Shown: positions 2,940 to 62,635 of the stretch, piece by piece
How positions within the stretch are numbered: position 1 is the stretch's first letter
How the letters are laid out: each line of letters opens with the position of its first letter
NCBI GenBank assembly: GCA_959597175.1
Contig: CAUFXM010000007.1
Coordinates: forward strand, 6,450 to 70,449
DNA from: an uncultured Methanomassiliicoccales archaeon
Lineage (GTDB): Archaea > Thermoplasmatota > Thermoplasmata > Methanomassiliicoccales > Methanomethylophilaceae
Direction of reading: 5' to 3'
DNA length: 64,000 bases
Position numbers and translations under genes: made by a program
Notes under the pieces: generated by a model
Told to the model about the DNA's origin: nothing
Database searches by the model: none
Seen by the model: the letters and a program-made list of their open reading frames with translations, nothing else

Positions 2940-3085
2940 GTTCCCTTCCCATCTTTTCGAAGACCAAAACGGTTCGACGGCGACTCAGAAACCTCGTCGT
3001 CGGAACGGCATCCCATGAGGTCGCGTACAGATCAGTTCAAGCGAGATGATGCGGCCTCTCGGCCACGAGATGAGATGAAGAAGTG

Positions 3086-3207
3086 GCTGACAGCGTGTCT
3101 GAGTTCCCGTACGCTTGCGCAATACAGTACAGACAGATACGCGGGCGGACTTTACTTCCGGGTTCGGGATGGGACCGGGTGTGACCCCGCCGCTATGGCC
3201 GTCATAC
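3086..3207 (-). rRNA. rrf: 5S ribosomal RNA (stand-alone, no 16S/23S nearby)
   Basis: Reverse complement reads TGACGGCCATAGCGGCGGGGTCACACCCGGTCCCATCCCGAACCCGGAAGTAAAGTCCGCCCGCG...GCTGTCA; 5' TGACGGC pairs with 3' GCTGTCA (helix I); ends approximate to a few nt. Confidence 0.9.
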
Positions 3208-20886: not shown

Positions 20887-21105
20887 TCAGGCGCTCTCGG
20901 CGGCCTTGAGGGATGACTTGTAGGCCTCCAGCACTGCGGGGACGGTCATGACGCTGACCGCTTCGACGAGGGAGTCCCAATCCTCCTCGGATATCATCAC
21001 GATGTTTCCAGCGCCGGTGCTGATGGTGATTTTCTCTCCCATCAGGGATCTGTCGACGAGTTCGCGCATCTTTTCCTGCGCACTGGGAACATCGTATGTT
21101 GCCAT
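20887..21105 (-). CDS. Phd/YefM-family type II antitoxin (no partner toxin seen)
   Basis: 72 aa; ...ELVDRSLMGEKITISTGAGNIVMISEEDWDSLVEAVSVM... matches Phd/YefM pattern. Confidence 0.7.
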   Translation of the reverse strand: MATYDVPSAQEKMRELVDRSLMGEKITISTGAGNIVMISEEDWDSLVEAVSVMTVPAVLEAYKSSLKAAESA

Positions 21106-24406: not shown

Positions 24407-24911
24407 CCCTGGTGCGTGCAAGGATCTGCTGAATGCAGAACGCCGAGAGGACCGGCTGCAGGAGGTCCTCCCCAGCCAGCCACCCGTCAAGCTCCAGGGG
24501 TCTGTCAGGGGTTCCGAGGCCCTCGAACGTTCCGGGCGAGCGGTAGTTGTCCCTGGCCAATACACGACCGACGCTCCCGGCCAGCTCGGAAGCGATCATT
24601 GGCGGCATCCTGTCCAGTGCCATGCAGGCGACCGGCGTGCCGGAGACGTCGCAGAGGCACCCGACCGTCAGGATCCTGGTCTCCGGCCCCTCGCAGGTGT
24701 GGAGGATCACGCTAAGCCTCCTGCTCTCAGTCCGGAGGTCCATCCTCCACCCCAACCTCTCCGCCGTCGCGGAGTATATCCCCGCGCTCACGGACATCGT
24801 GTCCATGTCAGACAGTCTGTATATCGCGGAGAGGTCGTCATCGGTCATCGTTCCGCGCGGATGGCGCAGAACGCCTCCGCGACCGGTCATCGACAGCACC
24901 ATCATGCGCAT
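24330..24911 (-). CDS. hypothetical protein translationally coupled to the helicase (candidate fifth gene of the Shango-like cassette)
   Basis: 193 aa; starts MRMMVLS with ATG codons overlapping helicase TGA (24902..24911); balanced composition, unlike the R/P-rich plus-strand ORFs; last 77 nt overlap hisS convergently. Confidence 0.5.
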   Translation of the reverse strand: MRMMVLSMTGRGGVLRHPRGTMTDDDLSAIYRLSDMDTMSVSAGIYSATAERLGWRMDLRTESRRLSVILHTCEGPETRILTVGCLCDVSGTPVACMALDRMPPMIASELAGSVGRVLARDNYRSPGTFEGLGTPDRPLELDGWLAGEDLLQPVLSAFCIQQILARTRVRPRSSERDHRSGRAPAPRWTCPSA

Positions 24912-27145
24912 CGTCCGGCGTCCCTCGTCTCCGAACCCGCGGGCGATCGCGTCGAATCCGAGCGCATCCAACAGGGGTGCACGGCAGCAATCCTCGGTAC
25001 CCACCGTCGATCACCTCGGGCGATGTCGAAGTCCCAGTCCAGCCTCCTGGCGCAGAACGCGTTGGCCAGGAGGTCGTCTGGGACGAACCTGTCGAACTTC
25101 TTGGACCTCAGCCTGTCCTCCGGGGACAGGAGGGTCGATATCGCGCCTTCGGACCTGATCCGTGCCAGTCCCTCCAGTATCGCGTCAGGGGGCAGGTCGG
25201 TGGCGACCTCTATCACCACCGGGCTGTAGGCCCACAGCACCTGGACCCCGTCGATTTCGGACAGCATCCTCCTGAGAGTGTCGAACTTGACGGATCCCAG
25301 CCAGGGGTAGACCGAATACCCCAGGTCGGAGTCCACGAACACGTCCGCCGTCCCCGAGGCCCTGAAGGCGGATCTGGACGTCGACAGCTCGACCCTGGCG
25401 GCGCTGTCCAGGTACGGGTAGTCATCGTCCGACAGCAGGACATCCCTCATCTTAGCCACCACTCTGTCGTCCACGTCAGGGGCTTCGCCGGACCAGGAGC
25501 GGTCGGGGTCGCCGTCGGTCTCCTCCACATCCACCCATCCGTCGCCCCTCCTGGTGACCACCCACACCCTTCCCGCGAGACCTATCCTGGTCCCGTACTC
25601 GGGCTCCCCCTGGACGGTGCCGACCGGGGTGCCGTTGCATCTGACCTCCGTCTCCTTCTTGACGGTGAACACGGACGGGAATTCCCCGCCGAATGCCAGC
25701 CATTCCGCGGACGGGCCTATTACGAGGGACCGGTCAGCCGTCTGGACCATGGCCCCCTGGACTATCATGTGCCTCGCCAGCCTCCTGTACTCTTCGACCG
25801 TGATCCCGGCGAATGGGTCGAGCGACAGAACGTCCCTGACGAGATCGGTGAACCTAACGTCCCCGGTCGCCCCCTTCAGTGCCGCCAGGGTCTGGTGGAA
25901 CAGGAGGCCGTATGGGAGGGGGTCCGGGGCCATCCTCTCCGTCCACCCCTCCCTCAGGTACAGCTCCGTCTCCGCGATCCCCCTGGCCAGCTCCATCGAG
26001 ACCCCGTCGATCCCGGGATGCCAGATGGCATCGTCGTCGTTGCAGAACATGATCATCTCCTGCCTGCCGCCGCGCCTCCCGGACCTGCCCATCCTCTGTA
26101 CCATGCTGGAGCAGGTCCAAGGGGCGCCGATCTGCACGACCCTGTCGAGACCTCCGATGTCCATCCCGAGCTCCAGCGTCACGGTCGCCACCACCGTCGC
26201 CCTCGGATCGCCCTTCAGGTCGGCCTCAGCCAACCTCCTGGTCTCGGCGGTGAGGCTGCCGTGGTGCACCCTAACCGGGTTCCTGGACCCCCTGGCCTTC
26301 GAGACCTTCTCCAGGGATCTGGCGGTCCTCTCCGCCGCGGCCCTGCTGTTGGTGAACACGATGCAGTTGTATGGGTCTGTGAGCCTGAACAGCTCCGAGT
26401 AGTAGGACAGTACGGCACGGTCCCTGCTGCCCTCCCTGTCCTTGGGCGGGAACCTGCAGTGCTTGATCCCCATCCTGCAGGACCTGCGGTCGTCGGAGGA
26501 CACCACCGACACGCCCCGTCCGGTGCTGCCCCCCAGCCATCCGGCCGCTTCCCCCGGCTCTGAGAGCGTCGCGGACAGCCCAATCCTCCTGGGGGAGCAT
26601 CCGGCAGCCCTCTCGATGCGGGTGAGCTCGCAGAGAAGCTGGAGGCCCCTGTCTGAGGACATGAACGCGTGGAGCTCGTCGACTATGACGAATCTGAGGT
26701 TTCCGAACATACGGCGGAGATCCTCCGGATGGCCGTCGATTATGCCCTCCAGGGACTCCGGAGTGATCTGGAGGATCCCCTCCGGCTCCCTGAAGATCGC
26801 CTCCTTGCGGAACGCGTCAACGTCCCCGTGCCATCCGCTCACCTTTATCCCGGAGTCCCTGAGCATCAGGTCGAATCTGGAGAACTGGTCGTCTATCAGC
26901 GCCTTGGTGGGGCCTACGTAGAGCGCCCCGATCCCGTCAGGGGGATCAGAGTGGAGGGAAGATACGACCGGTATCAGCGCGGCCTCCGTCTTCCCTGACG
27001 ACGTTCCCGACGAGATCAGGAGGTGGTCGTCCGTGTCGAACAGGACGTCGAACGCCCTGAGCTGCACATCCCTGAACGACGTCCATCCGCTCCTGTGAAG
27101 GTGCTCCAGAACGAAGCGAGGCATGCGGTCGGTGTGGTCGTTCAT
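24902..27145 (-). CDS. Lhr-like DExH-box helicase (SngC-like)
   Basis: GTSSGKT (26987..27007), DELH (26669..26680), SAT, QRMGRSGRRG; about 300-aa C-terminal extension; ATGA overlap with upstream ATPase. Confidence 0.8.
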   Translation of the reverse strand: MNDHTDRMPRFVLEHLHRSGWTSFRDVQLRAFDVLFDTDDHLLISSGTSSGKTEAALIPVVSSLHSDPPDGIGALYVGPTKALIDDQFSRFDLMLRDSGIKVSGWHGDVDAFRKEAIFREPEGILQITPESLEGIIDGHPEDLRRMFGNLRFVIVDELHAFMSSDRGLQLLCELTRIERAAGCSPRRIGLSATLSEPGEAAGWLGGSTGRGVSVVSSDDRRSCRMGIKHCRFPPKDREGSRDRAVLSYYSELFRLTDPYNCIVFTNSRAAAERTARSLEKVSKARGSRNPVRVHHGSLTAETRRLAEADLKGDPRATVVATVTLELGMDIGGLDRVVQIGAPWTCSSMVQRMGRSGRRGGRQEMIMFCNDDDAIWHPGIDGVSMELARGIAETELYLREGWTERMAPDPLPYGLLFHQTLAALKGATGDVRFTDLVRDVLSLDPFAGITVEEYRRLARHMIVQGAMVQTADRSLVIGPSAEWLAFGGEFPSVFTVKKETEVRCNGTPVGTVQGEPEYGTRIGLAGRVWVVTRRGDGWVDVEETDGDPDRSWSGEAPDVDDRVVAKMRDVLLSDDDYPYLDSAARVELSTSRSAFRASGTADVFVDSDLGYSVYPWLGSVKFDTLRRMLSEIDGVQVLWAYSPVVIEVATDLPPDAILEGLARIRSEGAISTLLSPEDRLRSKKFDRFVPDDLLANAFCARRLDWDFDIARGDRRWVPRIAAVHPCWMRSDSTRSPAGSETRDAGRCA

Positions 27146-28431
27146 ACTTCCAGGTCACCGATGAGGTCGTCGTCCGGGTTGTCGTCTGGCTCAACCGTCC
27201 TGCCGGTCACCATCGATTCGAACGTGGCATCCGGGTTCTGGTGCAGGGTGTCCAGGAGGCTGATGAAGTCGCGGGTGATCTCCCTGGGTGTGACCAGCCC
27301 GGCCCCGACGGTGCAGGTGACAGTCTTCAGGTAGGTCTCCAGCATGGAGTCGTCTATCCCCGACCGGTATGAGTAGCGCTGCTCGTGCATCCCCCTCAGC
27401 GTCCTCAGCAGGACGAAGACCTCCTCGTTCGTCAGCGGCCTCAGGTTGATGACCGGGCCGAGGTAGTTGTCGTACCCGTTCTCGTATCTGCCGGCGACCA
27501 GTCTGGACCTGAGTGCCTCGTAGCTGTACAGACCTCTGTTGGGATCCTCTATGAACTCGGGGGTCCCGCAGACGTACATCGAGAGATGGGAGGACTTGCC
27601 CTGCATGATGTCGTTGAACATGGTGAGGAGCCTCTCGTAGTTGTTGCTGCGGGCCACCTTGCTCTGGATCTTGTACAGGATAACACCCTCGTCGATGAAT
27701 ACAACCAGGCCCTTGTACCCGATCCCGGAGCAGAACGCCGCCCACAGCTTGATGAAGTCGTACCAGTTGGCGTCGGTGACCATGTTCGATATGCCCAGGT
27801 CCTTGCGCACGTCGGACTTCAGTTCGTACTCGCCCTTGAGCCATCTCACCGAAGGCATGTCGTCAGAGCCGGAGCTGAGGTCCTCCCAGTACCTGGAGAC
27901 CACGGAGGCGAAGTCCTGATGGAACGTCATCCCGCTCATCTCTGCGGTATCACGCCTCAGACGGTCGCACACCTCTTCCGCCGTCAGGGACTCAACCGTC
28001 CTGCCCGTCTCGGAGGCTACGCGTCCCCTGATCTCGGAGACCCATTTCTGAAGCACGGTCTCCATCGCACCCCCGTCCGGCACCGACTTGACCGCCATGT
28101 TCCTTATCAGTTCGCGGTAGGTGTTCAGGCCCTCCTTCTTGCTCCCCGTGAGCCTGCGGTTTATTGCCAGGTCGGCATCCATGACGACGAACCCGCGGTC
28201 CATGGCGTAGTTGCGGATCATCTGGACCATGAAGCTCTTCCCGTTGCCGAAGCGTCCTGACACGAACCTGAACGCTCCGCCGCCCTCCGCGGTGTCCTCC
28301 AGGTCGCTGACGAATGTCTCGGTCTCCTTCCTGCGTCCCACGGCGATGTACTCCAGCCCCCTGCGGGGGACTACGCCCGAGGACAGGGCGTTCATCATCG
28401 TGATAAGTGTTCTGCGCGGGATGTCGACCAT
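27142..28431 (-). CDS. DUF2791/BrxD-like P-loop ATPase (SngB-like)
   Basis: Walker A GRFGNGKS (28234..28257), Walker B-like GLVVFIDE; N-terminal ...ALSSGVVPRRGLEYIAVGR... as I recall for DUF2791. Confidence 0.7.
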   Translation of the reverse strand: MVDIPRRTLITMMNALSSGVVPRRGLEYIAVGRRKETETFVSDLEDTAEGGGAFRFVSGRFGNGKSFMVQMIRNYAMDRGFVVMDADLAINRRLTGSKKEGLNTYRELIRNMAVKSVPDGGAMETVLQKWVSEIRGRVASETGRTVESLTAEEVCDRLRRDTAEMSGMTFHQDFASVVSRYWEDLSSGSDDMPSVRWLKGEYELKSDVRKDLGISNMVTDANWYDFIKLWAAFCSGIGYKGLVVFIDEGVILYKIQSKVARSNNYERLLTMFNDIMQGKSSHLSMYVCGTPEFIEDPNRGLYSYEALRSRLVAGRYENGYDNYLGPVINLRPLTNEEVFVLLRTLRGMHEQRYSYRSGIDDSMLETYLKTVTCTVGAGLVTPREITRDFISLLDTLHQNPDATFESMVTGRTVEPDDNPDDDLIGDLEV

Positions 28432-28456
28432 GACATGTCCATGGACTCGATGTATT

Positions 28457-28714
28457 TCAACTTGAAGAGGGGCCGCCGCCGAGCCGTGTCAGCGCCGCCC
28501 GCAGGTCGTCCTCGTAGTCCTCCACCAGCGAGCCCGTCTCCACGACCACGTCACCGACGGTGTCCATCGCCGCGGTGTTGATCTCCTCCTCCAGGGCGCC
28601 CCTCTTGAGCACATCCGCCACCGGTTTCACGCCGTCCAGGAGGGATGAGAGGTATCCCAAGGCATCGTCAGATAGGGATCCTACGAAGGCGGACCAGGGC
28701 CCGTCCGCAGTCAT
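28457..28714 (-). CDS. TerB-C-like small ORF; in frame with upstream ORF across a TAG
   Basis: 85 aa; RGALEEEINTAAMDTVGDVVVE resembles the conserved core of TerB-C; same frame as 28733..30706, separated only by TAG plus 6 sense codons. Confidence 0.55.
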   Translation of the reverse strand: MTADGPWSAFVGSLSDDALGYLSSLLDGVKPVADVLKRGALEEEINTAAMDTVGDVVVETGSLVEDYEDDLRAALTRLGGGPSSS

Positions 28715-28732
28715 CGCCGGTTCGGGAACGGG

Positions 28733-30706
28733 CTAGGACAGCACCTCGGGCTCCACCTCGTCCTCTGTGACCATCAACGTCCTCACGGCGTCAAGATCGT
28801 CCTCGGCGGAGCTCACAGCGCGCATGTCGATGGAGAATCTGTCCATCCTCCGCTCCAGGTCCTGCCTGCGGACCGATCTGGAATGTTCCCTGTAGATGCC
28901 TTCCAGCTTCTCGTCCATCCCCTCATGATTCCTCCCGAACGTGCATCTGGAGGGCCATCCCTTCAACCCGAGTTCCCTGTTCACCGCGCGGATGGTGTAT
29001 GCAAGGCACGTCCTCGCGATCCAGGATGCGCCGCTGAGGTTCTTGGGCTTGAGCGCGGGCGTCGCATGGGTTGTGCTCCTGTGGGGCATGTAGTTGAACA
29101 GCGTCGTGTACGATGTCCCCCTCATTCCGATCTCATCGCTGACGATGAACTCGCATCTCGACCACATCCCGCTCAGGAGGACGTTCAAGAGGGTGTCGTA
29201 ATCCGCGTCGGGATCCATGAACCTGCCCATCTTCCCGCCGCACCAGGCGTCCAGCATCCTGGCGGTCATGGTCCCGGGCGACCGGAGGAGCAGCTTCAGC
29301 GTGACGCATCTGTCCAACTGGTTCCACCGCGAGGCATCCGTGCCTTCGGGAGGTCCGATGGCAGGATCCATCATGTGCAGGTCGGCGTAGTCGAGTATGA
29401 CCCTGTCCAGGGTCTCGGCGGGCCATACCCCGTCAGTTGTGTATGCCCTCCTGAGGTTGAGGAGGATGCCCATCACATCCTGGGGCTCGCCCCAGGAATC
29501 GACCAGATCGCAAAGGAGCAGCCACAGGTACCCCTCGTCGGTGCCTCTGAAGACGCCTGCCGCGACCTCGTCCCTCCATGAGAGATAGAAGTCCCTCTGG
29601 GCGGGGGTCATCGTCGAGAACTGGGCCGGCACCGACCCCGATTCCACGTATGGGGCGTTGACCCTGCCGACAGACGTCCTGTTGGACTCCAGGTCCTTGA
29701 AGAACCTGCCGGAGGCCCTGACGTTCCTGAGCCTCCCCTTCGGTGCGACGGAGCCCAGGACCTGGATCTCCGCAGGGGTCGAGGGGGCCTCTGCGAACAC
29801 AGGTTCGTCCCACTGGGTCCATTCCCCCTGAGCCTCCGAGCCGAGGGCGTCCATCGCGATCTGCAGGTCGACGGAGTCCATGGCCTCGATCGGTCCGACG
29901 CCCAGGCCGTCCCAGTCCCAGAACGTGCGTTCGCACACCGCCGCCGCTATACCGAGGAAGGTCGCTCTCCACCGGTCCGTGTCGTATGACCTGTAGCGAA
30001 CGGTGATGCGTTCGGGTCCTGCCAGGTAGGCGAACCCGTCGAAGAGCATGACGTCCTCGGAGCGGTCGTCGGCGATGGCGTCGAAGCCATGGTCGGACAC
30101 CACGGCTCTGGCACACCTTGTGAAGAGGGTGGAGAACGTTGCCCGGTCCGGCACCTCCAGGATCCTCTCGTCTCCGCACATCTCGGCTATCACCGGGACG
30201 TCGATGTCGTTCTGCCTCCTTCCGTTGAGCGCCGAGTGCACCGCGTATCCCCTGAGCCTCCTGCCGGACCACATGAACCTGCAGTCCCAGTCGAGGCCCA
30301 GAAGCAGTGCCAGATCCTTGGACGCGTTGGCGGCCATCACGGACACCGGCGTGCCGCGGAACCTTCCGACCATCCCTGCCACCTCGTCCAGGAGCTTCGA
30401 GGACCCGAAGCCCGCTCCTTCCATGCCGACGGTGTTGGCTATCTCGCAGATCCTGAGCCAGGCGAAGCCCCAGTCCGCGGGGACGTCCTCCCCGGCGTTT
30501 AGCCCCGTTCTCCATGACAGGTACGATTCCAACGTCTCGGGGGACATGTCGGCGTGGTACACGGGCCTGTCGTCAGGTTGGCGGTACCTGCCGGGAGCAA
30601 CCCTCGCATCCCTGTACCTCATGATGTCCGAGAGGAACGAGTCCGGAGGCAGCAGGATGAGCGAACGGCCACGGGCCTCAAGTCTGCGACGGGACTCCGC
30701 ATCCAT
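28733..30706 (-). CDS. TerB-N-like protein with two TerB-N modules (SngA-like); ends at TAG
   Basis: Two copies of ...M(S/T)P....YLSWR....AG.....G(F/Y).WL..C... (nt 30428..30574 and 29489..29656); C-terminus FSIDMRAVSSAEDDLDAVRTLM resembles the start of TerB-C. Confidence 0.6.
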   Translation of the reverse strand: MDAESRRRLEARGRSLILLPPDSFLSDIMRYRDARVAPGRYRQPDDRPVYHADMSPETLESYLSWRTGLNAGEDVPADWGFAWLRICEIANTVGMEGAGFGSSKLLDEVAGMVGRFRGTPVSVMAANASKDLALLLGLDWDCRFMWSGRRLRGYAVHSALNGRRQNDIDVPVIAEMCGDERILEVPDRATFSTLFTRCARAVVSDHGFDAIADDRSEDVMLFDGFAYLAGPERITVRYRSYDTDRWRATFLGIAAAVCERTFWDWDGLGVGPIEAMDSVDLQIAMDALGSEAQGEWTQWDEPVFAEAPSTPAEIQVLGSVAPKGRLRNVRASGRFFKDLESNRTSVGRVNAPYVESGSVPAQFSTMTPAQRDFYLSWRDEVAAGVFRGTDEGYLWLLLCDLVDSWGEPQDVMGILLNLRRAYTTDGVWPAETLDRVILDYADLHMMDPAIGPPEGTDASRWNQLDRCVTLKLLLRSPGTMTARMLDAWCGGKMGRFMDPDADYDTLLNVLLSGMWSRCEFIVSDEIGMRGTSYTTLFNYMPHRSTTHATPALKPKNLSGASWIARTCLAYTIRAVNRELGLKGWPSRCTFGRNHEGMDEKLEGIYREHSRSVRRQDLERRMDRFSIDMRAVSSAEDDLDAVRTLMVTEDEVEPEVLS

Positions 30707-51529: not shown

Positions 51530-52720
51530 TCATACGGTCCCGACGGCCCCGGACGGGGTTCCTCTAGGGGCCGCGAGCATCCGCCGTCTCACCACGATCG
51601 CCACCACAGCCAGCGCCAGGAAGGCCAGCGCGCAGGGGATCAGGTCCTGCAGGTTCGTCTGGTCCGCCACCAGCATCATCCCGCACACAGACGTCCCCAC
51701 GGTGACGCCCATGTTGCTCAGGCTCAGGTACAGCCCGTTGGAGAACTCCTTGGCCTCCATCGCCACGGACACCACGAAATGCTGCTGGAGGTTGTTGACG
51801 ATCCCGTTGGCCAGCCCCCAGACCAGGATGATGAGCATCATAGGGACGATCATGTTCCCGACCGAGAACAGCAGTACGTACACGATCCCCATGATGAGCG
51901 GGCACAGCAGGGACAGCCTGTAGGCGTGGCCGTCCAGCTGCCTTCCGGCCACCAGGTTCCCCACGATGCTCATGGCGCCGAAAGCTAGGAGGACCGCGCT
52001 GAGGTAGGCGGTCGGTACGCCGGTGATGATCTCCAGGAACTCGGAGATGTAGCTGTAGACGCCGTACGTCCCGGCGGTGAGCAGCATCGTGCACGCCAGG
52101 GACATCCAGAGTACAGGTTTCCTCAGTATGCGGACCTGGCTCCTGTAGTCCACGTGCCCGGTCGGCCTCATGGGAGGCATCACGGCAAGGAGGGCGACCA
52201 GCGCCACGGCGTCGATCGCCGCCATGAAGAGCATCCCGACGTCGAACCCGAACGCCTCCACGACGAGGGTGGTCACCGGCACCCCGAGGATCATCCCCGC
52301 CGAGAAGCCGGTGATGATCATCGACACGTTGCGGGTCACCCTGCCGGGTTCGGACACGTCCGCGGCCACCGACAGCGCGAACGAGCAGAACAGCGGGTGG
52401 GTGGCGGCCATGCAGACGCGGGCGGCAAGGAACGTAGCGAAATCCGGCGCCAGCATCGCGGATACGTTCCCGGCGGTGAACACCGTCAGCGTCAGCGCCA
52501 TGACCTTCTTGCGGTCGTATCTCGAAGCAAGCATCGGCGCCACCAGCGCGGAGACCATGATCGTCATCGCGAAGGCGCTCACGGCGAGCCCCGCCTCCGA
52601 GGTCGTGAGTCCGAAGCGGTCGGCGATCTCCGGGAGGATCCCTATGGAGCTCATCTCGGTGTTCAGTATCCCGAACGCGCCCAGCATCAGAACCGGTATC
52701 AGCAGTCTGCCCCTGTCCAT
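51530..52720 (-). CDS. MFS transporter
   Basis: 396 aa, about 12 TM. Confidence 0.8.
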   Translation of the reverse strand: MDRGRLLIPVLMLGAFGILNTEMSSIGILPEIADRFGLTTSEAGLAVSAFAMTIMVSALVAPMLASRYDRKKVMALTLTVFTAGNVSAMLAPDFATFLAARVCMAATHPLFCSFALSVAADVSEPGRVTRNVSMIITGFSAGMILGVPVTTLVVEAFGFDVGMLFMAAIDAVALVALLAVMPPMRPTGHVDYRSQVRILRKPVLWMSLACTMLLTAGTYGVYSYISEFLEIITGVPTAYLSAVLLAFGAMSIVGNLVAGRQLDGHAYRLSLLCPLIMGIVYVLLFSVGNMIVPMMLIILVWGLANGIVNNLQQHFVVSVAMEAKEFSNGLYLSLSNMGVTVGTSVCGMMLVADQTNLQDLIPCALAFLALAVVAIVVRRRMLAAPRGTPSGAVGTV

Positions 52721-52863
52721 CGTATCACTCCGTTATTCTGAAATTCGATTTCATATGTATGATATTCAGAATTTCGATGACATATATAAGATATTCCCAA
52801 CAGGAATAGTTATAATCAGATATCCGATATGACGATAACATAGCGGTGTCCGGAGGCGGATGG

Positions 52864-53688
52864 ATGGAGTACGTGGAGCTCAACAACGGCGTGATGATGC
52901 CCATGGTCGGTTTCGGGACATGGGACCTGAGGGGAGAATCGGGTAGAAGGGCGATCCTCGACGCCCTCGATTCCGGGTACCGCCTGATCGACACCGCCCG
53001 TATGTACGGGAACGAGGGCATCGTGGGGGAGGCGATCCGCGAGAGCAGTGTCCCCAGAGACCAGGTGTTCGTGACCACCAAGATATACCAGCCGTGCATC
53101 ACCCGCCGGAAGGCGGCCGAGGCCATCGACGACTCCCTGAGGAGGATGGGGCTCGATTACATCGATATGGTCCTGGTCCACGAGCCGTATCCCACGTCGT
53201 CGGAGATGTTCGGGGCCATCGTGGACGCGGTGGAAGAGGGGAAGGTCAGAGCCGCCGGAGTGTCAAACTTCGACGAGGATCTGTGCCGCAGGGTCTCGGA
53301 ATGCGGAACGGTCCCGGCGGTGAACCAGGTGGAGTCCCACGTATACTTCCCCCAGCTCTCCCTGAGGGATCTGATGATGGGGATGGGGACGGTCATGCAG
53401 TCATGGGGGCCGTTCACCGAGGGCCGTATGGACATATTCAACGACCCGGTTCTCAAGGGGATAGCGGAGGGCTGCGGAAGGACCGTGGCCCAGGTGGCGC
53501 TTAGGTACCTGGTCCAGAACGGGATCCCGGTGATACCCAAGTCCTCCCGGAGGGAGAGGATGGAGGAGAACCTAGGGGTCCTGGATTTCGAGCTTTCCGC
53601 CTCGGACATGAAGGAGATTTCGAAGCTGGACGGGGGCAGGTCCCTGTTCGGATGGTACCGATGCGAGGATGTGACGACATGGATGTGA
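52864..53688 (+). CDS. aldo/keto reductase (diketogulonate-reductase-like)
   Basis: ATG 52864 (MEYVELNNGVMMPMVGFGTW); IDTARMYGNE, VSNF, IPKS motifs; ORF opens at GTG 52846. Confidence 0.85.
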   Translation: MEYVELNNGVMMPMVGFGTWDLRGESGRRAILDALDSGYRLIDTARMYGNEGIVGEAIRESSVPRDQVFVTTKIYQPCITRRKAAEAIDDSLRRMGLDYIDMVLVHEPYPTSSEMFGAIVDAVEEGKVRAAGVSNFDEDLCRRVSECGTVPAVNQVESHVYFPQLSLRDLMMGMGTVMQSWGPFTEGRMDIFNDPVLKGIAEGCGRTVAQVALRYLVQNGIPVIPKSSRRERMEENLGVLDFELSASDMKEISKLDGGRSLFGWYRCEDVTTWM

Positions 53689-54572
53689 AGATACTGCGCA
53701 ACTTCCTGGAGGTCGCGGCCACCGGCAGCGTGACTAAGGCGGCCTCCAACCTGGGGATATCCCAGCCCACCCTGTCCAAGCAGATCAAGGATCTGGAGGC
53801 GGAGCTGGGGTGCAAGCTGTTCGTGAGGAGCAGCTACAGCGTGAGGCTCACCGAGGAGGGCATGGTGCTCCGCAGGCGCGCCGAGGACATCGTCGGCATG
53901 GTGGACACCGCCGTGGAGGAGATACGCTCCATGGACGGGGGGTCCGGAGGGGACATCCGCGTGGGATGCGCCGAATCCTAGGGGATAAGGCATCTGGCAA
54001 GGTGCTTCGGGGAGCTGCGGGAGCAGAACCCGGGGATGCGCCTGCATCTGTACAGCGGGAACACGGAGGACCTTTCCGCCCGTCTGGAGGGAGGGTTCCT
54101 GGACTTCGCCGTCCTCGCCCAGGAGGCCGACCTGGACAGGTACGAGGCGATACGCTTCCCGTGCACGGACAGATGGGGGATCGTGATGAAGGACGATTCA
54201 CCGCTCGCCTCCAAGAAGTCGGTGACCCTCGACGACCTGGAGGGGCTGCCGCTGATCTGCTCCCGCCAGGGTGTGGAGGCGGACCTGCCGGCCTGGCTGA
54301 GGGAGCGCGTGGATCATGTCGGGGTGGTGGCCACCTTCAACCTCGCGTACAACGGAGGCGTCATGGTACGGGAGGGGCTTGGGTACATGCTGGTCTTCGA
54401 CGGGCTGGTGTCCACTCTTCCGGGCAGCGGCCTGTGCTTCAGGCCCATCAGCCCTGTGGTGGAGACCCCGCTGTACGTTGTCTGGAAGAGGGGCAGGACA
54501 CCCTCGCCCGCGGCGTCCATGCTTCTGGACATGATGAGGGAGGAGTTCGGTTCCGGCGACCGAGGGGATTGA
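53679..54572 (+). CDS. LysR-family transcriptional regulator interrupted by one in-frame TAG (53979..53981)
   Basis: HTH FLEVAATGSVTKAASNLGISQPTLSKQIKDLE; ORFs 53652..53981 and 54036..54572 share a frame with no other stop between; ...RVGCAES[TAG]GIRHLARCFGELREQNPGMRLHLYSGN reads as a continuous LysR substrate-binding domain. Confidence 0.75.
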
Positions 54573-54776
54573 TCGCGGGTTGCGGGATGCCTGGACAAAG
54601 ATGATCCCCGTCAGATCCGACCATCGACGACTGCGAAGAGGTTTTCGTCACATCCATCCAGGGTCCTGATGACCTTGACCATGGCTCTGTCCGCAGGTGA
54701 ATGCAACAACAGTTTAATCGCTCCGGACCGTTCCGAGCATCCAAGGTTCCTCCGGGAACAAAGAAAGGCGTTCACC

Positions 54777-56129
54777 ATGGAGCAGACCACACTCTTCGAC
54801 CGTCCAGACAGGGAGGGAGCGGCTTCGGGCGCGAGGCCGGCAAACGAGCCGCTGGCGTCCCGCATGCGTCCGGAGACGCTGGAGGATTTCGTGGGGCAGG
54901 AGCACCTGCTCGGGGAGGGGAAGCTGCTCAGGGCCCTCATAGAGGGCGACAGCATAACGTCGATGGTCCTCTGGGGTCCCCCGGGGGTGGGGAAGACCAC
55001 GCTCGCCAGGATCATCGCCCGCCGCACCAGCATGAGGTTCGTGATCTTCTCGGCGGTGACCTCCGGAATCGGGGAGTTACGCGAGGTCATGAGGGCGGCG
55101 GAGGAGTGCCGCAGGAGGGGCGTCCGCACCATACTCTTCGTGGACGAGATCCATCGCTTCAACAAGGCCCAGCAGGATGCCTTCCTACCGTACGTGGAGA
55201 AGGGCTCCATCATCCTCATCGGGGCCACGACCGAGAACCCGTCCTTCGAGCTCAACGGCGCTCTGCTGTCCCGGCTCAGGGTGTTCGTGCTGAATCCCCT
55301 CAGCGCGGACGAGCTGGTGAGGGTCCTCACGAGGGCGCTGGAGACGGACCGCGTCCTGAGGGAGGTCCGCATAGATGTCTCCGACGAGACTCTGCACATC
55401 ATCGCCGACTACTCCAAGGGGGATGCCAGGGCCGCCCTGAACATGCTGGAGACCGCAGTGTCCAGCGGGGACGTGGTGGACTGGGGAATCCGCATCGACG
55501 AGAACGTTCTGAGGAGGGTGCTGGACAGGAAGTCCCTCATCTACGACAAGAGCGGGGAGGAGCACTTCCAGGTCATATCCGCGTTGCACGAGTCCATGCG
55601 CAACAGCGATGTGAACGCTGCCCTGTTCTGGCTCGCCAGGATGCTGGAGGCCGGGGAGGACCCAGTGTGGGTGGCCAGGAGGATAGCCGTGTCCGCGGCC
55701 ACGGACGTGGGGCTGGCCGACACCAACGCCCTCTCCGTGGCCATGGACGCACTCCAGGCCGCCAGGGTGATAGGCATGCCGGAGTGCGCCGTCTTCCTGG
55801 CCGAGGCCGTGGTCTACATCTGCCTCGCCCCCAGGTCCAACAGCGTCCAACGCGCCTACATCATGGCGAAGCGGGACGCCCGCGTCCACGACTGCGAGCA
55901 CATCCCCATGGCGATCCGCGCTGCCTATACCAGACTGCAGGAGCAGCTTGACTACGGTGGTGGATACGTCAACCCCCATATGACGGAGGACAAGCTCGCC
56001 GACATGCAGTGCATGCCGGACGCCCTGGTCGGGAGGGAGTACTACTTCCCCACGGACCTGGGGGACGAGGGCAGACTCGGTGCGCGTTACGCGGAAATAA
56101 AGCAGTGGAAGATGGAGCACAGGTCCTGA
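54777..56129 (+). CDS. rarA: replication-associated recombination protein A (RarA/MgsA AAA+ ATPase)
   Basis: ATG 54777; RPETLEDFVGQEHLLG, GPPGVGKTTLA, LFVDEIHRFNK motifs. Confidence 0.9.
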   Translation: MEQTTLFDRPDREGAASGARPANEPLASRMRPETLEDFVGQEHLLGEGKLLRALIEGDSITSMVLWGPPGVGKTTLARIIARRTSMRFVIFSAVTSGIGELREVMRAAEECRRRGVRTILFVDEIHRFNKAQQDAFLPYVEKGSIILIGATTENPSFELNGALLSRLRVFVLNPLSADELVRVLTRALETDRVLREVRIDVSDETLHIIADYSKGDARAALNMLETAVSSGDVVDWGIRIDENVLRRVLDRKSLIYDKSGEEHFQVISALHESMRNSDVNAALFWLARMLEAGEDPVWVARRIAVSAATDVGLADTNALSVAMDALQAARVIGMPECAVFLAEAVVYICLAPRSNSVQRAYIMAKRDARVHDCEHIPMAIRAAYTRLQEQLDYGGGYVNPHMTEDKLADMQCMPDALVGREYYFPTDLGDEGRLGARYAEIKQWKMEHRS

Positions 56130-56437
56130 ACCCGCTGTAGCATCCGGCATCGTCACCGCAGCCGGAACGTACTGGAACCGGTTCCATGCCCATGCCGATG
56201 ACTGGGGCGACGGAATTTGCCGGTTCTCTAGGACGACGTCCCCGGGGCGTCTCCTGGACGCATAATCCCACATTCCCTTGTGCGAACCATGTTCTTGGTT
56301 ATGCCTTCGATTTCCTGACTGCACTTATGCATATGCTGTGCGCAGGAGGATGAATCCAGGAACAGATTCGGTGGAAAACAAGGGAAGGGGAATCCCCCCG
56401 GAGGGGGTAAGGGGTTTCGCGATTGGGATTATCCCGC

Positions 56438-57475
56438 TTATGCCAGGCTCTTGATGGCCTTGACGAGGGCTTCCATGTTGGCGTCGGGGGTAGCGACGGC
56501 GATTCCGCATCCGGAGGAGATGACGTTGAATCCAGCGGCGGCGGACCTCTTGGCGGCGACCTCGACCTCCTCAGGGGTTCCCTGGAACAGGGGCCTGACG
56601 GATCCGACGTTTCCGACCAGGACGGTCTTTCCGCCGATCTTCTCGCATGCCTTCTCGGGCTCGACCTTCTCCTCGATGGAGATTCCGGTGACGCCAGTGG
56701 CGGCCATCTGGTCCAGGATGGGGTAGGTGTCTCCGCAGATGTGGAGAACGGTGTACTTGCCCTCCTTGGGCTTCAGGGCGGTCTTGACGTGCTTTCCAGC
56801 GGCCATCTCGAACATGTCGGGAGCGAGCATGTCGGTGGATCCGGAAGGCTCGGAGCACTGGACGACATCCGCACCGGCGTCCATCAGGGCGTGGGTGTAA
56901 GCGGTGACGATGGGGTTGACAGCCTCGACCCACTTGTCGACCTCCTCGGGGCACATCATCATTCCGAAGACCAGGTTCTCGGTGTTGACGAGGTTTCCGG
57001 TCAGGGTGAAGGGACCGGTGTTACCGGCGACGATGGCGTAGTTCTCGCCGTGGGACTTGGCCAGGAGCTCCATGGCCTTGATGGCCTCGGCGGGCCTGCC
57101 GCCCTGGATGAACTCCTCGGGGGACATCAGGTTGGCGGGGTCGTCGTACTCGCTCATCATGGGGTCGAACTTGAAGGGGTGGGCCTTGATCATGGGGGCG
57201 GCGTCCTTCTTCTCGACCTGGACGGTGGCTCCGAGCCTCTCGGACTCAGCGGTCAGGCAGAAGGGGGCCCTCACGCACTCGAATCCGAAGACATCGGCCT
57301 GGGCGGCACCCAGCTTGGCCATGAGCTCAGCGTTCTTGTGGGCCTCGGGCCAGGCGGCTCCGACCTTCTCCATCTGTCCGAGGGTGGCGGACTGGGTGAA
57401 GATGGCCACGGGGGGCCTGTCCAGGGATTCCTGTTTCATCGCTGCGAGTACTCTGTCTCTAGGAGTCATTGTCAT
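56438..57475 (-). CDS. methylcobamide:CoM methyltransferase (MtaA/MtbA family, URO-D fold)
   Basis: ATG 57475 (MTMTPRDRVLAAMK); PFTL..., HICGDT motifs; cannot distinguish MtaA from MtbA. Confidence 0.75.
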   Translation of the reverse strand: MTMTPRDRVLAAMKQESLDRPPVAIFTQSATLGQMEKVGAAWPEAHKNAELMAKLGAAQADVFGFECVRAPFCLTAESERLGATVQVEKKDAAPMIKAHPFKFDPMMSEYDDPANLMSPEEFIQGGRPAEAIKAMELLAKSHGENYAIVAGNTGPFTLTGNLVNTENLVFGMMMCPEEVDKWVEAVNPIVTAYTHALMDAGADVVQCSEPSGSTDMLAPDMFEMAAGKHVKTALKPKEGKYTVLHICGDTYPILDQMAATGVTGISIEEKVEPEKACEKIGGKTVLVGNVGSVRPLFQGTPEEVEVAAKRSAAAGFNVISSGCGIAVATPDANMEALVKAIKSLA

Positions 57476-57612
57476 TTTGATTATCTCCTTGAGTGTTGGC
57501 AACGCCTTCACCTTATTTAATATTACTATGATTGTTCTGCGCATGGGCTTCTAGTCGCGTGCGCGCGTGCGTAATAATGGTCAGGATTTCTGGACCGTCT
57601 CCGAGGGGGCTT

Positions 57613-59482: not shown

Positions 59483-60875
59483 CCTCCGCAGGATGCAGAG
59501 GGACCTGGAGGCTGCCGCGTCGATGCTCCGGGGAGCGTCCAGCATTTCCATCGTGACCCACATAGATGCGGACGGGATCTCGGCCGGGGCGATAGCGGAC
59601 ATCACCTGCGAGAGGCTCGGCGTAGAACGCACCGTCAGGTTCGAGAAGAAGATCACCGACGAGGTCGTGGGGGAGATCAACTCGGACGGTGCCGACCTGG
59701 TTTGGATCTGCGACCTCGGAAGCGGGTACCTGTCCCAGTTCGACAGGGACGGGATGGTCGTCACAGACCACCATGTCCCGGATCCCAGATGGAGGAGGAA
59801 GCAGACCCTCCTCGACTCTTTCGCGGGACTCATCCACATAAATCCGCACTGCTACGGGATGGACGGGTCCTACGAGGTGTGCGGAGCGGGCATGACATAC
59901 TTCCTGTCCAAGACCGTTGATCCGGCCAACATCGACCTCGCCTTCCTGGCTGTGGTGGGCGCGGTGGGCGACTTCCAGGACTCGAACCATTCTGGGCTCA
60001 CCGGGCTAAACCGCACGGTGATACAGGATGCGGTCGCGTGCGGGTCGATGACCGTGGACCGTGACCTGAGGTTCTTCGGGAGGGACACGCGTCCGATAAA
60101 CCAGTACCTCCAGTTCGCCAGCGACCCGTCCATCCCCGGACTGAGCGATAGCCCCTCGGCCTGTCTGGAATTCCTGGATGCTGTCGGGATCAAGGGCAAG
60201 TCGGGAGGCAGATGGAGGACATGGGACGATCTGACGGACGATGAGAGGGAGAGGGCAACGGACGCCATCCTCTCGAGGTTCCCGGAGGACCAGAGGGATC
60301 GGGCGTTCGGAGAGATGTACACCTTCCCCGACAAGCCGAAGGGCACCGGACTCAGGGATGCCAAGGAGTTCGCCACCGTCCTGAACTCCTGCGGCCGCTA
60401 CGACGATGCGGTCACCGGCCTGAGGATCTGCCGCGGGGACATGACCGCCATGGCGGACGCCGAGAGGAACAGGGCCGATCACAGGAGGCACATATCGTCG
60501 GCCATGTCATACATCCGGGACAACCACCTCCTGAGGGAGAGGCGCTTCATCCAGTGGTTCGACGCCGGGTCGGAGATAAAGGAGACCGTGGTTGGGATAG
60601 TGGCGGGGATGATACTCAGCTCCCCGGAGTGCGTCCGCAAGGTGCCGATCATTGCGTTCGCGGACTCGGACGACGGGGTGAAGGTCTCCGCCAGGGCGGA
60701 CAGGGGTCTGGTGGACCGGGGTCTGAACCTCTCCGATGTGATGAAGACCGCCGCCGAACTGGTGGGCGGGACCGGCGGGGGGCACTCCATAGCCGCAGGG
60801 GCGACCATTCCGCCGGACAGAAAGGAGGAGTTCCTCGACATCGTGGAGGATCTGGTCTCCTCGCAGGTGGAGTAA
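59463..60875 (+). CDS. DHH-family phosphoesterase, archaeal RecJ/GAN-like
   Basis: THIDADGISAG, CDLGSG, VTDHH, GGGHSIAAG motifs; 20-nt overlap with upstream gene. Confidence 0.75.
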   Translation: MPASAGDLRRMQRDLEAAASMLRGASSISIVTHIDADGISAGAIADITCERLGVERTVRFEKKITDEVVGEINSDGADLVWICDLGSGYLSQFDRDGMVVTDHHVPDPRWRRKQTLLDSFAGLIHINPHCYGMDGSYEVCGAGMTYFLSKTVDPANIDLAFLAVVGAVGDFQDSNHSGLTGLNRTVIQDAVACGSMTVDRDLRFFGRDTRPINQYLQFASDPSIPGLSDSPSACLEFLDAVGIKGKSGGRWRTWDDLTDDERERATDAILSRFPEDQRDRAFGEMYTFPDKPKGTGLRDAKEFATVLNSCGRYDDAVTGLRICRGDMTAMADAERNRADHRRHISSAMSYIRDNHLLRERRFIQWFDAGSEIKETVVGIVAGMILSSPECVRKVPIIAFADSDDGVKVSARADRGLVDRGLNLSDVMKTAAELVGGTGGGHSIAAGATIPPDRKEEFLDIVEDLVSSQVE

Positions 60876-61105
60876 TCCCCTCAGGAACACAACAATCTAC
60901 CAGTATTCGGGTATCCTAACGATCCAAGGGTTCTATGGATTGTGAAAACACAACTTGACGACATGTTAGCCAGATATCCAACGTAGGGATCATTCCAGGC
61001 GTTAGGTCAGATTAAAATTATCTCGGTAATTTCAGAGGTTCCTAACTCAAAAATCGGTATATTTTAATACCGTTCGGAAAAATCATTGAATCAGAGGTAA
61101 TTGAA

Positions 61106-61483: not shown

Positions 61484-62635
61484 ATGGAGTACACTCTGAT
61501 GCACAAGAACGTCGAGGTGGCGGATGTCGGGATCGACGGCACTGGGACCGTGACGAAGGTCGGTAACGTCAGAGCGATTTCCCATATGCCGGTTGGAACC
61601 GTCGTCGGAGGGTTCGCCGACGGTGTCCGCTTCAGGGATTGGTGGGCATCCAGGTCCATCCCGGCCAGCCGTGAGGGCATCCGCGATTTGCTCAATCAGC
61701 TGGACATCACGGACTCCAAGGCGCTGCTGACGAGATCCATGGGTCTGAGCCTCTCCGACCACTACTGGATAAGACCCGCCGGATCCGAAGTGGCGTGGGA
61801 GAGGGTGAACTTCTTCGACAACCACTTCTCGGACGACATCGGAGACATGCTGTTCGGGAAGGTCATCGAGGGGGGCGAGATGGATCTCTCCTCGCCTGAC
61901 AACACCTCGGACGGCGTCCTGAGAAAGAGATGGAAGATCGTAGGTGGCGTCCGCTGTCTCGTCAAAGGCGGGACTGGCACGGAGAGGCAGGAGCCATTCA
62001 ACGAGGTCTTGGCCTCGGAGCTGATGGAGGCTCTGGAGATAGAGCATGTCGGATACACCCTGGAATGGATCTCCGACCGTCCCTACAGCGTCTGCGAGGA
62101 CTTCATCGACACCGGGACGGAACTGGTCAGCGCATACAGGGTGATTATCTCGAGCAAGCGCCGCAACGACGTATCCCTGTACGACCACTACGTCGGATGC
62201 TGTGCCGAATTCGGCATCGATGTCGTCCCGGCCTTGGACAGGATGATGGTGCTGGATTACATCATAGGCAACGGAGACAGGCACACGAACAATTTCGGCC
62301 TGATACGCGACGCGGACACGTTGGAGTGGCTTCGCCCTGCGCCGGTGTTCGACAGCGGCACATCCCTCGGATGCGGGCTCCGCCCGGACGAGATCCCGCA
62401 CCAGGCGGGTGTATCCTGCAAGCCCTTCATGAAGACGTTCAGGGAGCAGATCGAGCTGGTGACGTCCTTCGACTGGATCGATTTCGGGGCTCTGAGGGAT
62501 GCGATCCCCTCGCCGGAGCACATCATCGACATCTCGCGCGGGACCATCGACGTCCACAGGGCCGAGGCCATCTCCTCCTTCGTGGGATCCAGGGTGGACT
62601 CTCTTTCGGCCATCACCGGTAGGTCCGGACGCTGA
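61484..62635 (+). CDS. HipA-like Ser/Thr kinase domain protein (no adjacent HipB/HTH gene)
   Basis: SLSDHYWIRP, NEVLASELMEAL, LDYIIGNGDRHTNNFGLI (catalytic-loop-like), VFDSGTSL. Confidence 0.7.
   Translation: MEYTLMHKNVEVADVGIDGTGTVTKVGNVRAISHMPVGTVVGGFADGVRFRDWWASRSIPASREGIRDLLNQLDITDSKALLTRSMGLSLSDHYWIRPAGSEVAWERVNFFDNHFSDDIGDMLFGKVIEGGEMDLSSPDNTSDGVLRKRWKIVGGVRCLVKGGTGTERQEPFNEVLASELMEALEIEHVGYTLEWISDRPYSVCEDFIDTGTELVSAYRVIISSKRRNDVSLYDHYVGCCAEFGIDVVPALDRMMVLDYIIGNGDRHTNNFGLIRDADTLEWLRPAPVFDSGTSLGCGLRPDEIPHQAGVSCKPFMKTFREQIELVTSFDWIDFGALRDAIPSPEHIIDISRGTIDVHRAEAISSFVGSRVDSLSAITGRSGR

Follow-up and report, generated by a model that had tools for sequence, protein, structure and literature searches.

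A young, strain-private GAG-to-TAG mutation in a LysR gene of a Methanomethylophilaceae archaeon and its probable decoding, at least in part, as pyrrolysine

A LysR-type transcriptional regulator (LTTR) gene of a Methanomethylophilaceae archaeon carries one in-frame TAG codon. It differs from GAG by one base (G>T), and this change is confined to the contig studied here. On balance, we favour the reading that this is a young, strain-private mutation in a functional LysR gene, and that the codon is probably decoded, at least partly, as pyrrolysine (Pyl). The gene lies at 53679..54572 (+ strand) of the 64-kb stretch of DNA that we analysed (the window), and comprises 297 codons including the TAG at 53979..53981 (+ strand), codon 101 counted from the ATG at 53679.

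The preliminary description of this DNA had placed two open reading frames, 53652..53981 and 54036..54572, in one frame with the TAG as the only stop between them. Translation bears this out: the two ORFs, 384 nt apart, share one frame, the TAG is the sole stop, and read-through gives ...GGDIRVGCAES(TAG)GIRHLARCFGELREQNPGMRLHLYSGNTEDL..., as given there. A LysR substrate-binding domain was also said to begin around the TAG, and the Pfam LysR_substrate match indeed runs unbroken across it. In the joined product, the winged-HTH DNA-binding domain (Pfam HTH_1, PF00126) covers residues 6-61 (53694..53861, + strand) with an E value of 2.6e-22, above the gathering score. The LysR effector-binding domain (LysR_substrate, PF03466) covers residues 87-290 (53937..54548, + strand) with an E value of 3.4e-32, matching profile positions 2-208 of 209. 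Provided that the TAG is read through, the product has the architecture of an LTTR, with an N-terminal HTH_1, a C-terminal LysR_substrate and about 300 residues; without read-through it loses the effector-binding domain. The ATG at 53679 (MDVKILRNF...), which matches the start of homologues, is likely to be the true start. Gene callers start at the upstream ATG 53652, from which the TAG is codon 110.

The TAG lies 14 residues into LysR_substrate, in the GCAES[D/E]G loop after the first β-strand, as placed by alignments to solved LTTR structures. We take this loop to contribute to the effector pocket in BenM and CysB. A database search found an uninterrupted 306-aa protein (P0001) with Glu at the TAG position and otherwise 100% identical to the window LysR. 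Because this protein exists publicly, the split gene is genuine and no chance juxtaposition of ORFs.

We compared the window with five P0001-encoding contigs (L001-L005) from other metagenomes, and over the 921-nt gene the sole consistent difference is T at 53979 in the window against G in all five. Four of these contigs (L001-L004) show zero other differences from the window LysR gene, and L005 shows one, which is probably synonymous. The flanks of the five are 98.5-99.95% identical to those of the window, as for conspecific strains. Within the 90%-identity protein cluster, the split pair (P0122 and P0123, 109 and 178 aa) comes from a single 110,569-bp contig only, and the five intact variants (P0001, P0121, P0124, P0125 and P0127, from about 14 contigs) all have Glu. 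GAG is also retained in L036, a divergent conspecific allele with 23 synonymous differences. Thus, the sister-strain comparison that the preliminary description had proposed finds GAG (Glu) in every sister strain examined.

The affected residue is nearly invariant. When the best 120 homologues were aligned, the column of the TAG held Asp in 97 and Glu in 21, an acidic residue in 118/120, within an invariant G-C-A-E-S-[D/E]-G motif; the question of which residue belongs at this position, raised at the outset, is answered accordingly. Both orthologous species also have E or D in this column. The gene itself is under constraint: dN/dS is about 0.10 against L036 (23 synonymous against 7.8 nonsynonymous differences, counting the TAG) and 0.12-0.26 against the orthologues of two related species. 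The within-species value of about 0.10 reflects purifying selection, and so indicates that LysR is functional and that the TAG mutation is young. Long-term relaxed selection on LysR is ruled out by the range of 0.10-0.26. A decaying pseudogene would be expected to carry several lesions or a dN/dS near 1; here there is one lesion and a dN/dS of 0.10, a comparison that is powerless over so short an age.

Outside the family, LysR is most similar to clostridial LTTRs (57-62% identity). The LTTRs of Oscillibacter, Anaerofilum and Butyricicoccus share with the window LysR this level of identity over the full length, the HTH_1 and LysR_substrate domains and the GCAES[D/E]G motif, whereas the window LysR differs in its archaeal host and in the TAG. 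With the intact LysR as query, GTDB species representatives yielded only distant bacterial relatives, at 49% identity or less.

LysR belongs to a conserved module of three genes. An aldo/keto reductase (AKR) gene lies directly upstream (52846..53688, + strand), and its stop overlaps the LysR ATG by 10 nt, because of which the two are probably co-transcribed. An MFS transporter gene (Pfam MFS_1; 51530..52720, - strand) is divergent from the AKR-LysR pair. The same neighbourhood is found in L001-L003, L010 and L036, and the LysR, AKR and MFS genes were probably acquired together by horizontal transfer, as the clostridial affinity of LysR suggests. The preliminary description had regarded further disabling mutations in sister genomes as the mark of a decaying pseudogene, and here the answer is divided. 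The conspecific sisters are intact. In the sister species represented by L009 (Logan ERR13967608; 5322-6000 against window 51530-53822), however, a deletion has taken MFS residues 1-218, the entire AKR and LysR residues 1-48, which include the HTH. In L010 (GCA_021628965.1, 5169-5960) two frameshifts disrupt the AKR, along which tblastn passes through frames 3, 2 and 3; the LysR orthologue beside it is intact (P0002, 70% identity). The L009 deletion and the L010 frameshifts indicate that the module is dispensable.

Several other features of the region were observed. An MgsA-like AAA gene (window 54669-56129) is also missing in L009, between LysR and MtaA. Two stretches of the window, 55350-56450 and 60000-61000, are hypervariable when compared with L001-L003: they show 58-71 differences per kb, counting indels, where other parts show 0-10 per kb. 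The former takes in the end of the MgsA-like gene (3') and the spacer ahead of MtaA. Such a pattern points to recombination or to replacement of local segments. A HipA_C-like kinase (weak Pfam match; window 61484-62635, + strand) matches the PADLOC candidate defence family PDC-M03A with an E value of 4e-15. A 72-aa ORF (MATYDVPSAQEKMRELVDRS...; window 20887-21105, - strand) resembles Phd/YefM-type antitoxins by eye and adjoins an AT-rich non-coding stretch. An isolated 5S rRNA gene (window 3085-3206, - strand; Rfam, 87 bits) has neither a 16S nor a 23S rRNA gene near it in the window.

We then considered how the host uses TAG. An MtaA-like methyltransferase encoded in the window (56438-57544) clusters at at least 90% identity with NCBI proteins of Candidatus Methanomethylophilaceae archaeon, and the Methanomethylophilaceae are a family of the order Methanomassiliicoccales. 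A self-trained, crude gene call of the 64-kb window gave 48 TGA, 7 TAA and 2 TAG stops, and both of these TAGs proved to be internal to genes. As a genuine stop, TAG ends 0/55 genes in the window (P = 1.3e-4, supposing that TAG makes up 15% of stops). Every other TAG-ending ORF of at least 40 aa in the window is a shadow inside a higher-scoring gene. Within the window, TAG is therefore as rare among stops as Genetic Code 34 demands (absent, or at most 5%). The two internal TAGs, in LysR and in sngA, belong to Category 1, with homology to one protein on both sides; no Category 4 TAG, whose read-through would cause a large out-of-frame overlap, was found within the window. Further TAGs just upstream of called genes were considered as possible split genes and rejected, since on translation they fall within spurious ORFs or leaders that do not code.

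Besides LysR, a single gene of the window is interrupted by a TAG: sngA, which encodes the TerB_N protein of the Shango defence system (28457..30706, - strand; 749 codons). It lies with sngB (27142-28431, - strand; PADLOC SngB, E value of 8e-151) and sngC (24902-27145, - strand; SngC, E value of 1e-171) in a complete Shango anti-phage operon (window 24902-30706, - strand), here in a Methanomethylophilaceae archaeon. The pieces before and after the TAG (28733-28735, - strand) match positions 64-197 and 451-525 of the 528-position SngA profile. The codon lies in a Pro/Glu-rich linker and is polymorphic within the species, with GAG (Glu) in the 749-aa variants. The TAG also occurs in 18 further contigs from different samples, with four downstream haplotypes (related loci L011-L028). 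Over the 91 codons 3' of this TAG neither a stop nor a frameshift occurs; the changes there, 7 synonymous and 7 nonsynonymous, correspond to a pN/pS of about 0.37 against 0.11 upstream of the TAG. Selection downstream of the TAG is borderline (one-sided P = 0.054 against neutrality), and the piece after the TAG has its own ATG 7 codons past it, so separate translation is possible. Thus, the sngA data offer modest support for the view that TAG does not end translation in the host species.

Within the 64-kb window, we found no pylT, pylS or pylBCD, and no mtmB, mtbB or mttB with an in-frame TAG. Some Methanomassiliicoccales may be without a Pyl system. We searched for PylRS with the M. alvus sequence, which a 100% match (P0207) confirmed; the matches were ranked by GC-driven amino-acid bias, followed by contig inspection and a composition check. 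The search recovered pylS-pylC-pylD clusters, with pylB too in L031, in related high-GC Methanomethylophilaceae from samples not known to hold the host species. Directly upstream of pylS, pylC, pylD and a RACo-like corrinoid activase gene, these contigs encode mtmB whose codon 202 is an in-frame TAG, in two copies in L029 (2910-5858) and one in L031 (4198-5580). Standard gene callers cut each of these mtmB genes into two ORFs. Family membership and the pattern of TAG usage in the window make Pyl competence of the host plausible.

Neither TAG is followed by a significant RNA structure. The 120 nt from the LysR TAG fold with a z-score of -1.04 against shuffles, and PYLIS-like folding after the LysR and sngA TAGs is indistinguishable from shuffled sequence. 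According to Kivenson 2024 (doi 10.1101/2024.09.30.615893), PYLIS is not required. A TAG kept at the same position, as programmed recoding would leave, was found in none of the conspecific alleles, orthologous species or 120 homologues.

Published work on this lineage offers close precedents. Ca. M. alvus was reported to have 1.6% TAG stops and 16 predicted non-methyltransferase Pyl proteins, and in such a background a new in-frame amber would, its authors stated, be a stable mutation (Borrel 2014, PMC4153887). A recent preprint (Kivenson 2024) put forward Genetic Code 34, under which every TAG codon encodes Pyl, detected Pyl in 12/15 expressed predicted Pyl proteins of M. alvi, and described many genes with internal TAGs in Methanomethylophilus, Methanogranum and Methanoplasma, among others. 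Its authors found that internal TAG sites are nearly all singletons and probably neutral, and argued that most Pyl-introducing mutations should be selected against. The singleton Category 1 genes of Genetic Code 34 archaea such as M. alvi (Kivenson 2024; Borrel 2014, Table 7) resemble LysR in host family, in not encoding methyltransferases, in a TAG present in one genome, in near-zero TAG stops and in the match of both sides of a single TAG to one protein family. The LysR TAG differs in being datable as extremely young, by the identical GAG alleles in conspecific strains, and in occupying a strongly conserved residue, so that it is more likely to be deleterious than neutral. Pyl has been shown by mass spectrometry for M. 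alvi, whereas for the LysR host we infer its incorporation.

Two proteins of M. acetivorans are also comparable. In Thg1 (tRNA-His guanylyltransferase), Pyl is taken as neutral evolution in the accounts cited by Kivenson 2024 and PMC12626013. As far as those accounts go, Thg1 shares with LysR a TAG from a point mutation, a gene unrelated to methylamine metabolism, a Pyl-decoding archaeal host and the lack of a dedicated recoding signal; the Thg1 site is reported there to tolerate Pyl, whereas 98% of homologues have an acidic residue at the LysR site, which makes neutrality doubtful. The sensor kinase RdmS resembles LysR in being a regulator whose ligand-sensing domain is interrupted by an in-frame TAG (PMC12626013). 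Shalvarjian 2025 (PMC12626013) reported a dual meaning of UAG in M. acetivorans, with RdmS made in a long and a short form. No other precedent comes closer to the tuning idea of the preliminary description. The RdmS TAG, however, is a standing feature of a reference strain and has been studied experimentally, whereas the TAG in LysR is confined to a single strain. A conserved Pyl position was also described across three genera of Methanosarcinaceae (Kivenson 2024), in a GAF/PAS-family protein that could be RdmS or a different one.

Rather than being read as Pyl, the TAG could be a true loss-of-function allele, in which UAG terminates, the strain makes only the 100-aa HTH-plus-linker fragment and the MFS-AKR-LysR module is being lost. 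Such a null allele would sit well with the dispensability of the module (the L009 deletion and the two frameshifts in the L010 AKR), with Pyl machinery found only on contigs of relatives and none tied to the host genome, with the stop meaning that UAG keeps in M. acetivorans (PMC12626013) and with the lack of a recoding-enhancing structure 3' of the LysR TAG. It is harder to reconcile with 0/55 bona fide TAG stops in the window, with an internal sngA TAG that persists across many strains with its downstream part intact, with the report that the lineage reads TAG as Pyl genome-wide (Kivenson 2024) and with a LysR gene that has no second lesion. We regard a null allele as possible, though rather unlikely. 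The preliminary description had left the choice at a Pyl or read-through protein or a fresh pseudogene. Freshness is borne out by a one-base change on this contig only, with GAG in the sisters, and Pyl is plausible from the family, the absence of TAG stops and the literature.

A sequencing or consensus error in the metagenome-assembled contig, with G as the true base at 53979 and LysR intact, would likewise produce a single G>T transversion on one contig only. The 2-kb sister contig L004 is identical to the window apart from position 53979, and an exact look-up of the 109-aa product gave no recorded gene position, both of which would fit an error. Elsewhere, however, the window carries many other private differences from its sister contigs, as a distinct strain would, and a private SNP is thus no surprise. 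Three sources (NCBI, Logan and ENA) list the products of 109 and 178 aa, and consensus errors which happen to make a stop are generally rare. An error thus appears improbable. Far less probable still is programmed and selected dual decoding, in which the TAG is kept in order for the supply of Pyl to govern the balance between full-length protein and a DNA-binding, HTH-only competitor. An LTTR fragment ending after the linker helix could plausibly dimerise and bind DNA, by analogy with general LTTR architecture, and in M. acetivorans the RdmS TAG gives long and short forms while pyl gene expression responds to methylamines (PMC12626013). Against this, the conspecific alleles, both orthologous species and the 120 homologues have no TAG, a nearly invariant acidic residue (118/120) is replaced, no RNA structure follows, and the allele shows no sign of age, with zero other in-gene differences from L001-L004. 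The suggestion that decoding efficiency tunes the ratio of full-length to HTH-only regulator finds no support for the same reasons, namely the unconserved TAG, the acidic site and the missing recoding structure.

Returning to decoding as Pyl, at least in part, we propose the following course of events. A very recent G>T change (GAG to TAG) would have occurred in a single strain of a methanogenic archaeon of the Methanomethylophilaceae from the human or animal gut. The ribosome most likely inserts Pyl at codon 101 to give a full-length Glu101Pyl LysR, because published work assigns Genetic Code 34 to the lineage and TAG usage in the window follows the same pattern. Partial termination at the TAG may yield a 100-aa HTH-plus-linker fragment as well. 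The Glu101Pyl regulator is probably impaired or effector-blind, because a near-invariant acidic residue that opens the effector-binding domain is replaced. The TAG would then be a young allele, probably neutral or mildly deleterious, in an accessory MFS-AKR-LysR module that is dispensable, and no programmed recoding site. It is very improbable, in our view, that Glu101Pyl LysR is functional and that the balance between the full-length and 100-aa products is set by the supply of Pyl-tRNA, which would couple AKR and MFS expression to methylamine availability. If true, such coupling would be a nascent, natural form of amber-codon-based regulation caught at its origin.

The phenomenon has already been described for the Methanomethylophilaceae lineage, and the LysR case opens no new mechanism. 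It does show that gene calling with code 11 fragments both LysR and the Shango sngA, and TAG splits in Methanomethylophilaceae should be treated as probable Pyl codons and not automatically as pseudogenes. At the LysR locus, a TAG allele is paired with otherwise identical GAG alleles in conspecific strains, which gives a population-level view of new Pyl codons. The window also holds a contrast, with the LysR TAG a singleton at a constrained site and the sngA TAG widespread in a Pro/Glu-rich linker. This contrast fits the published expectation that most Pyl-introducing mutations are selected against, and that tolerated ones persist.
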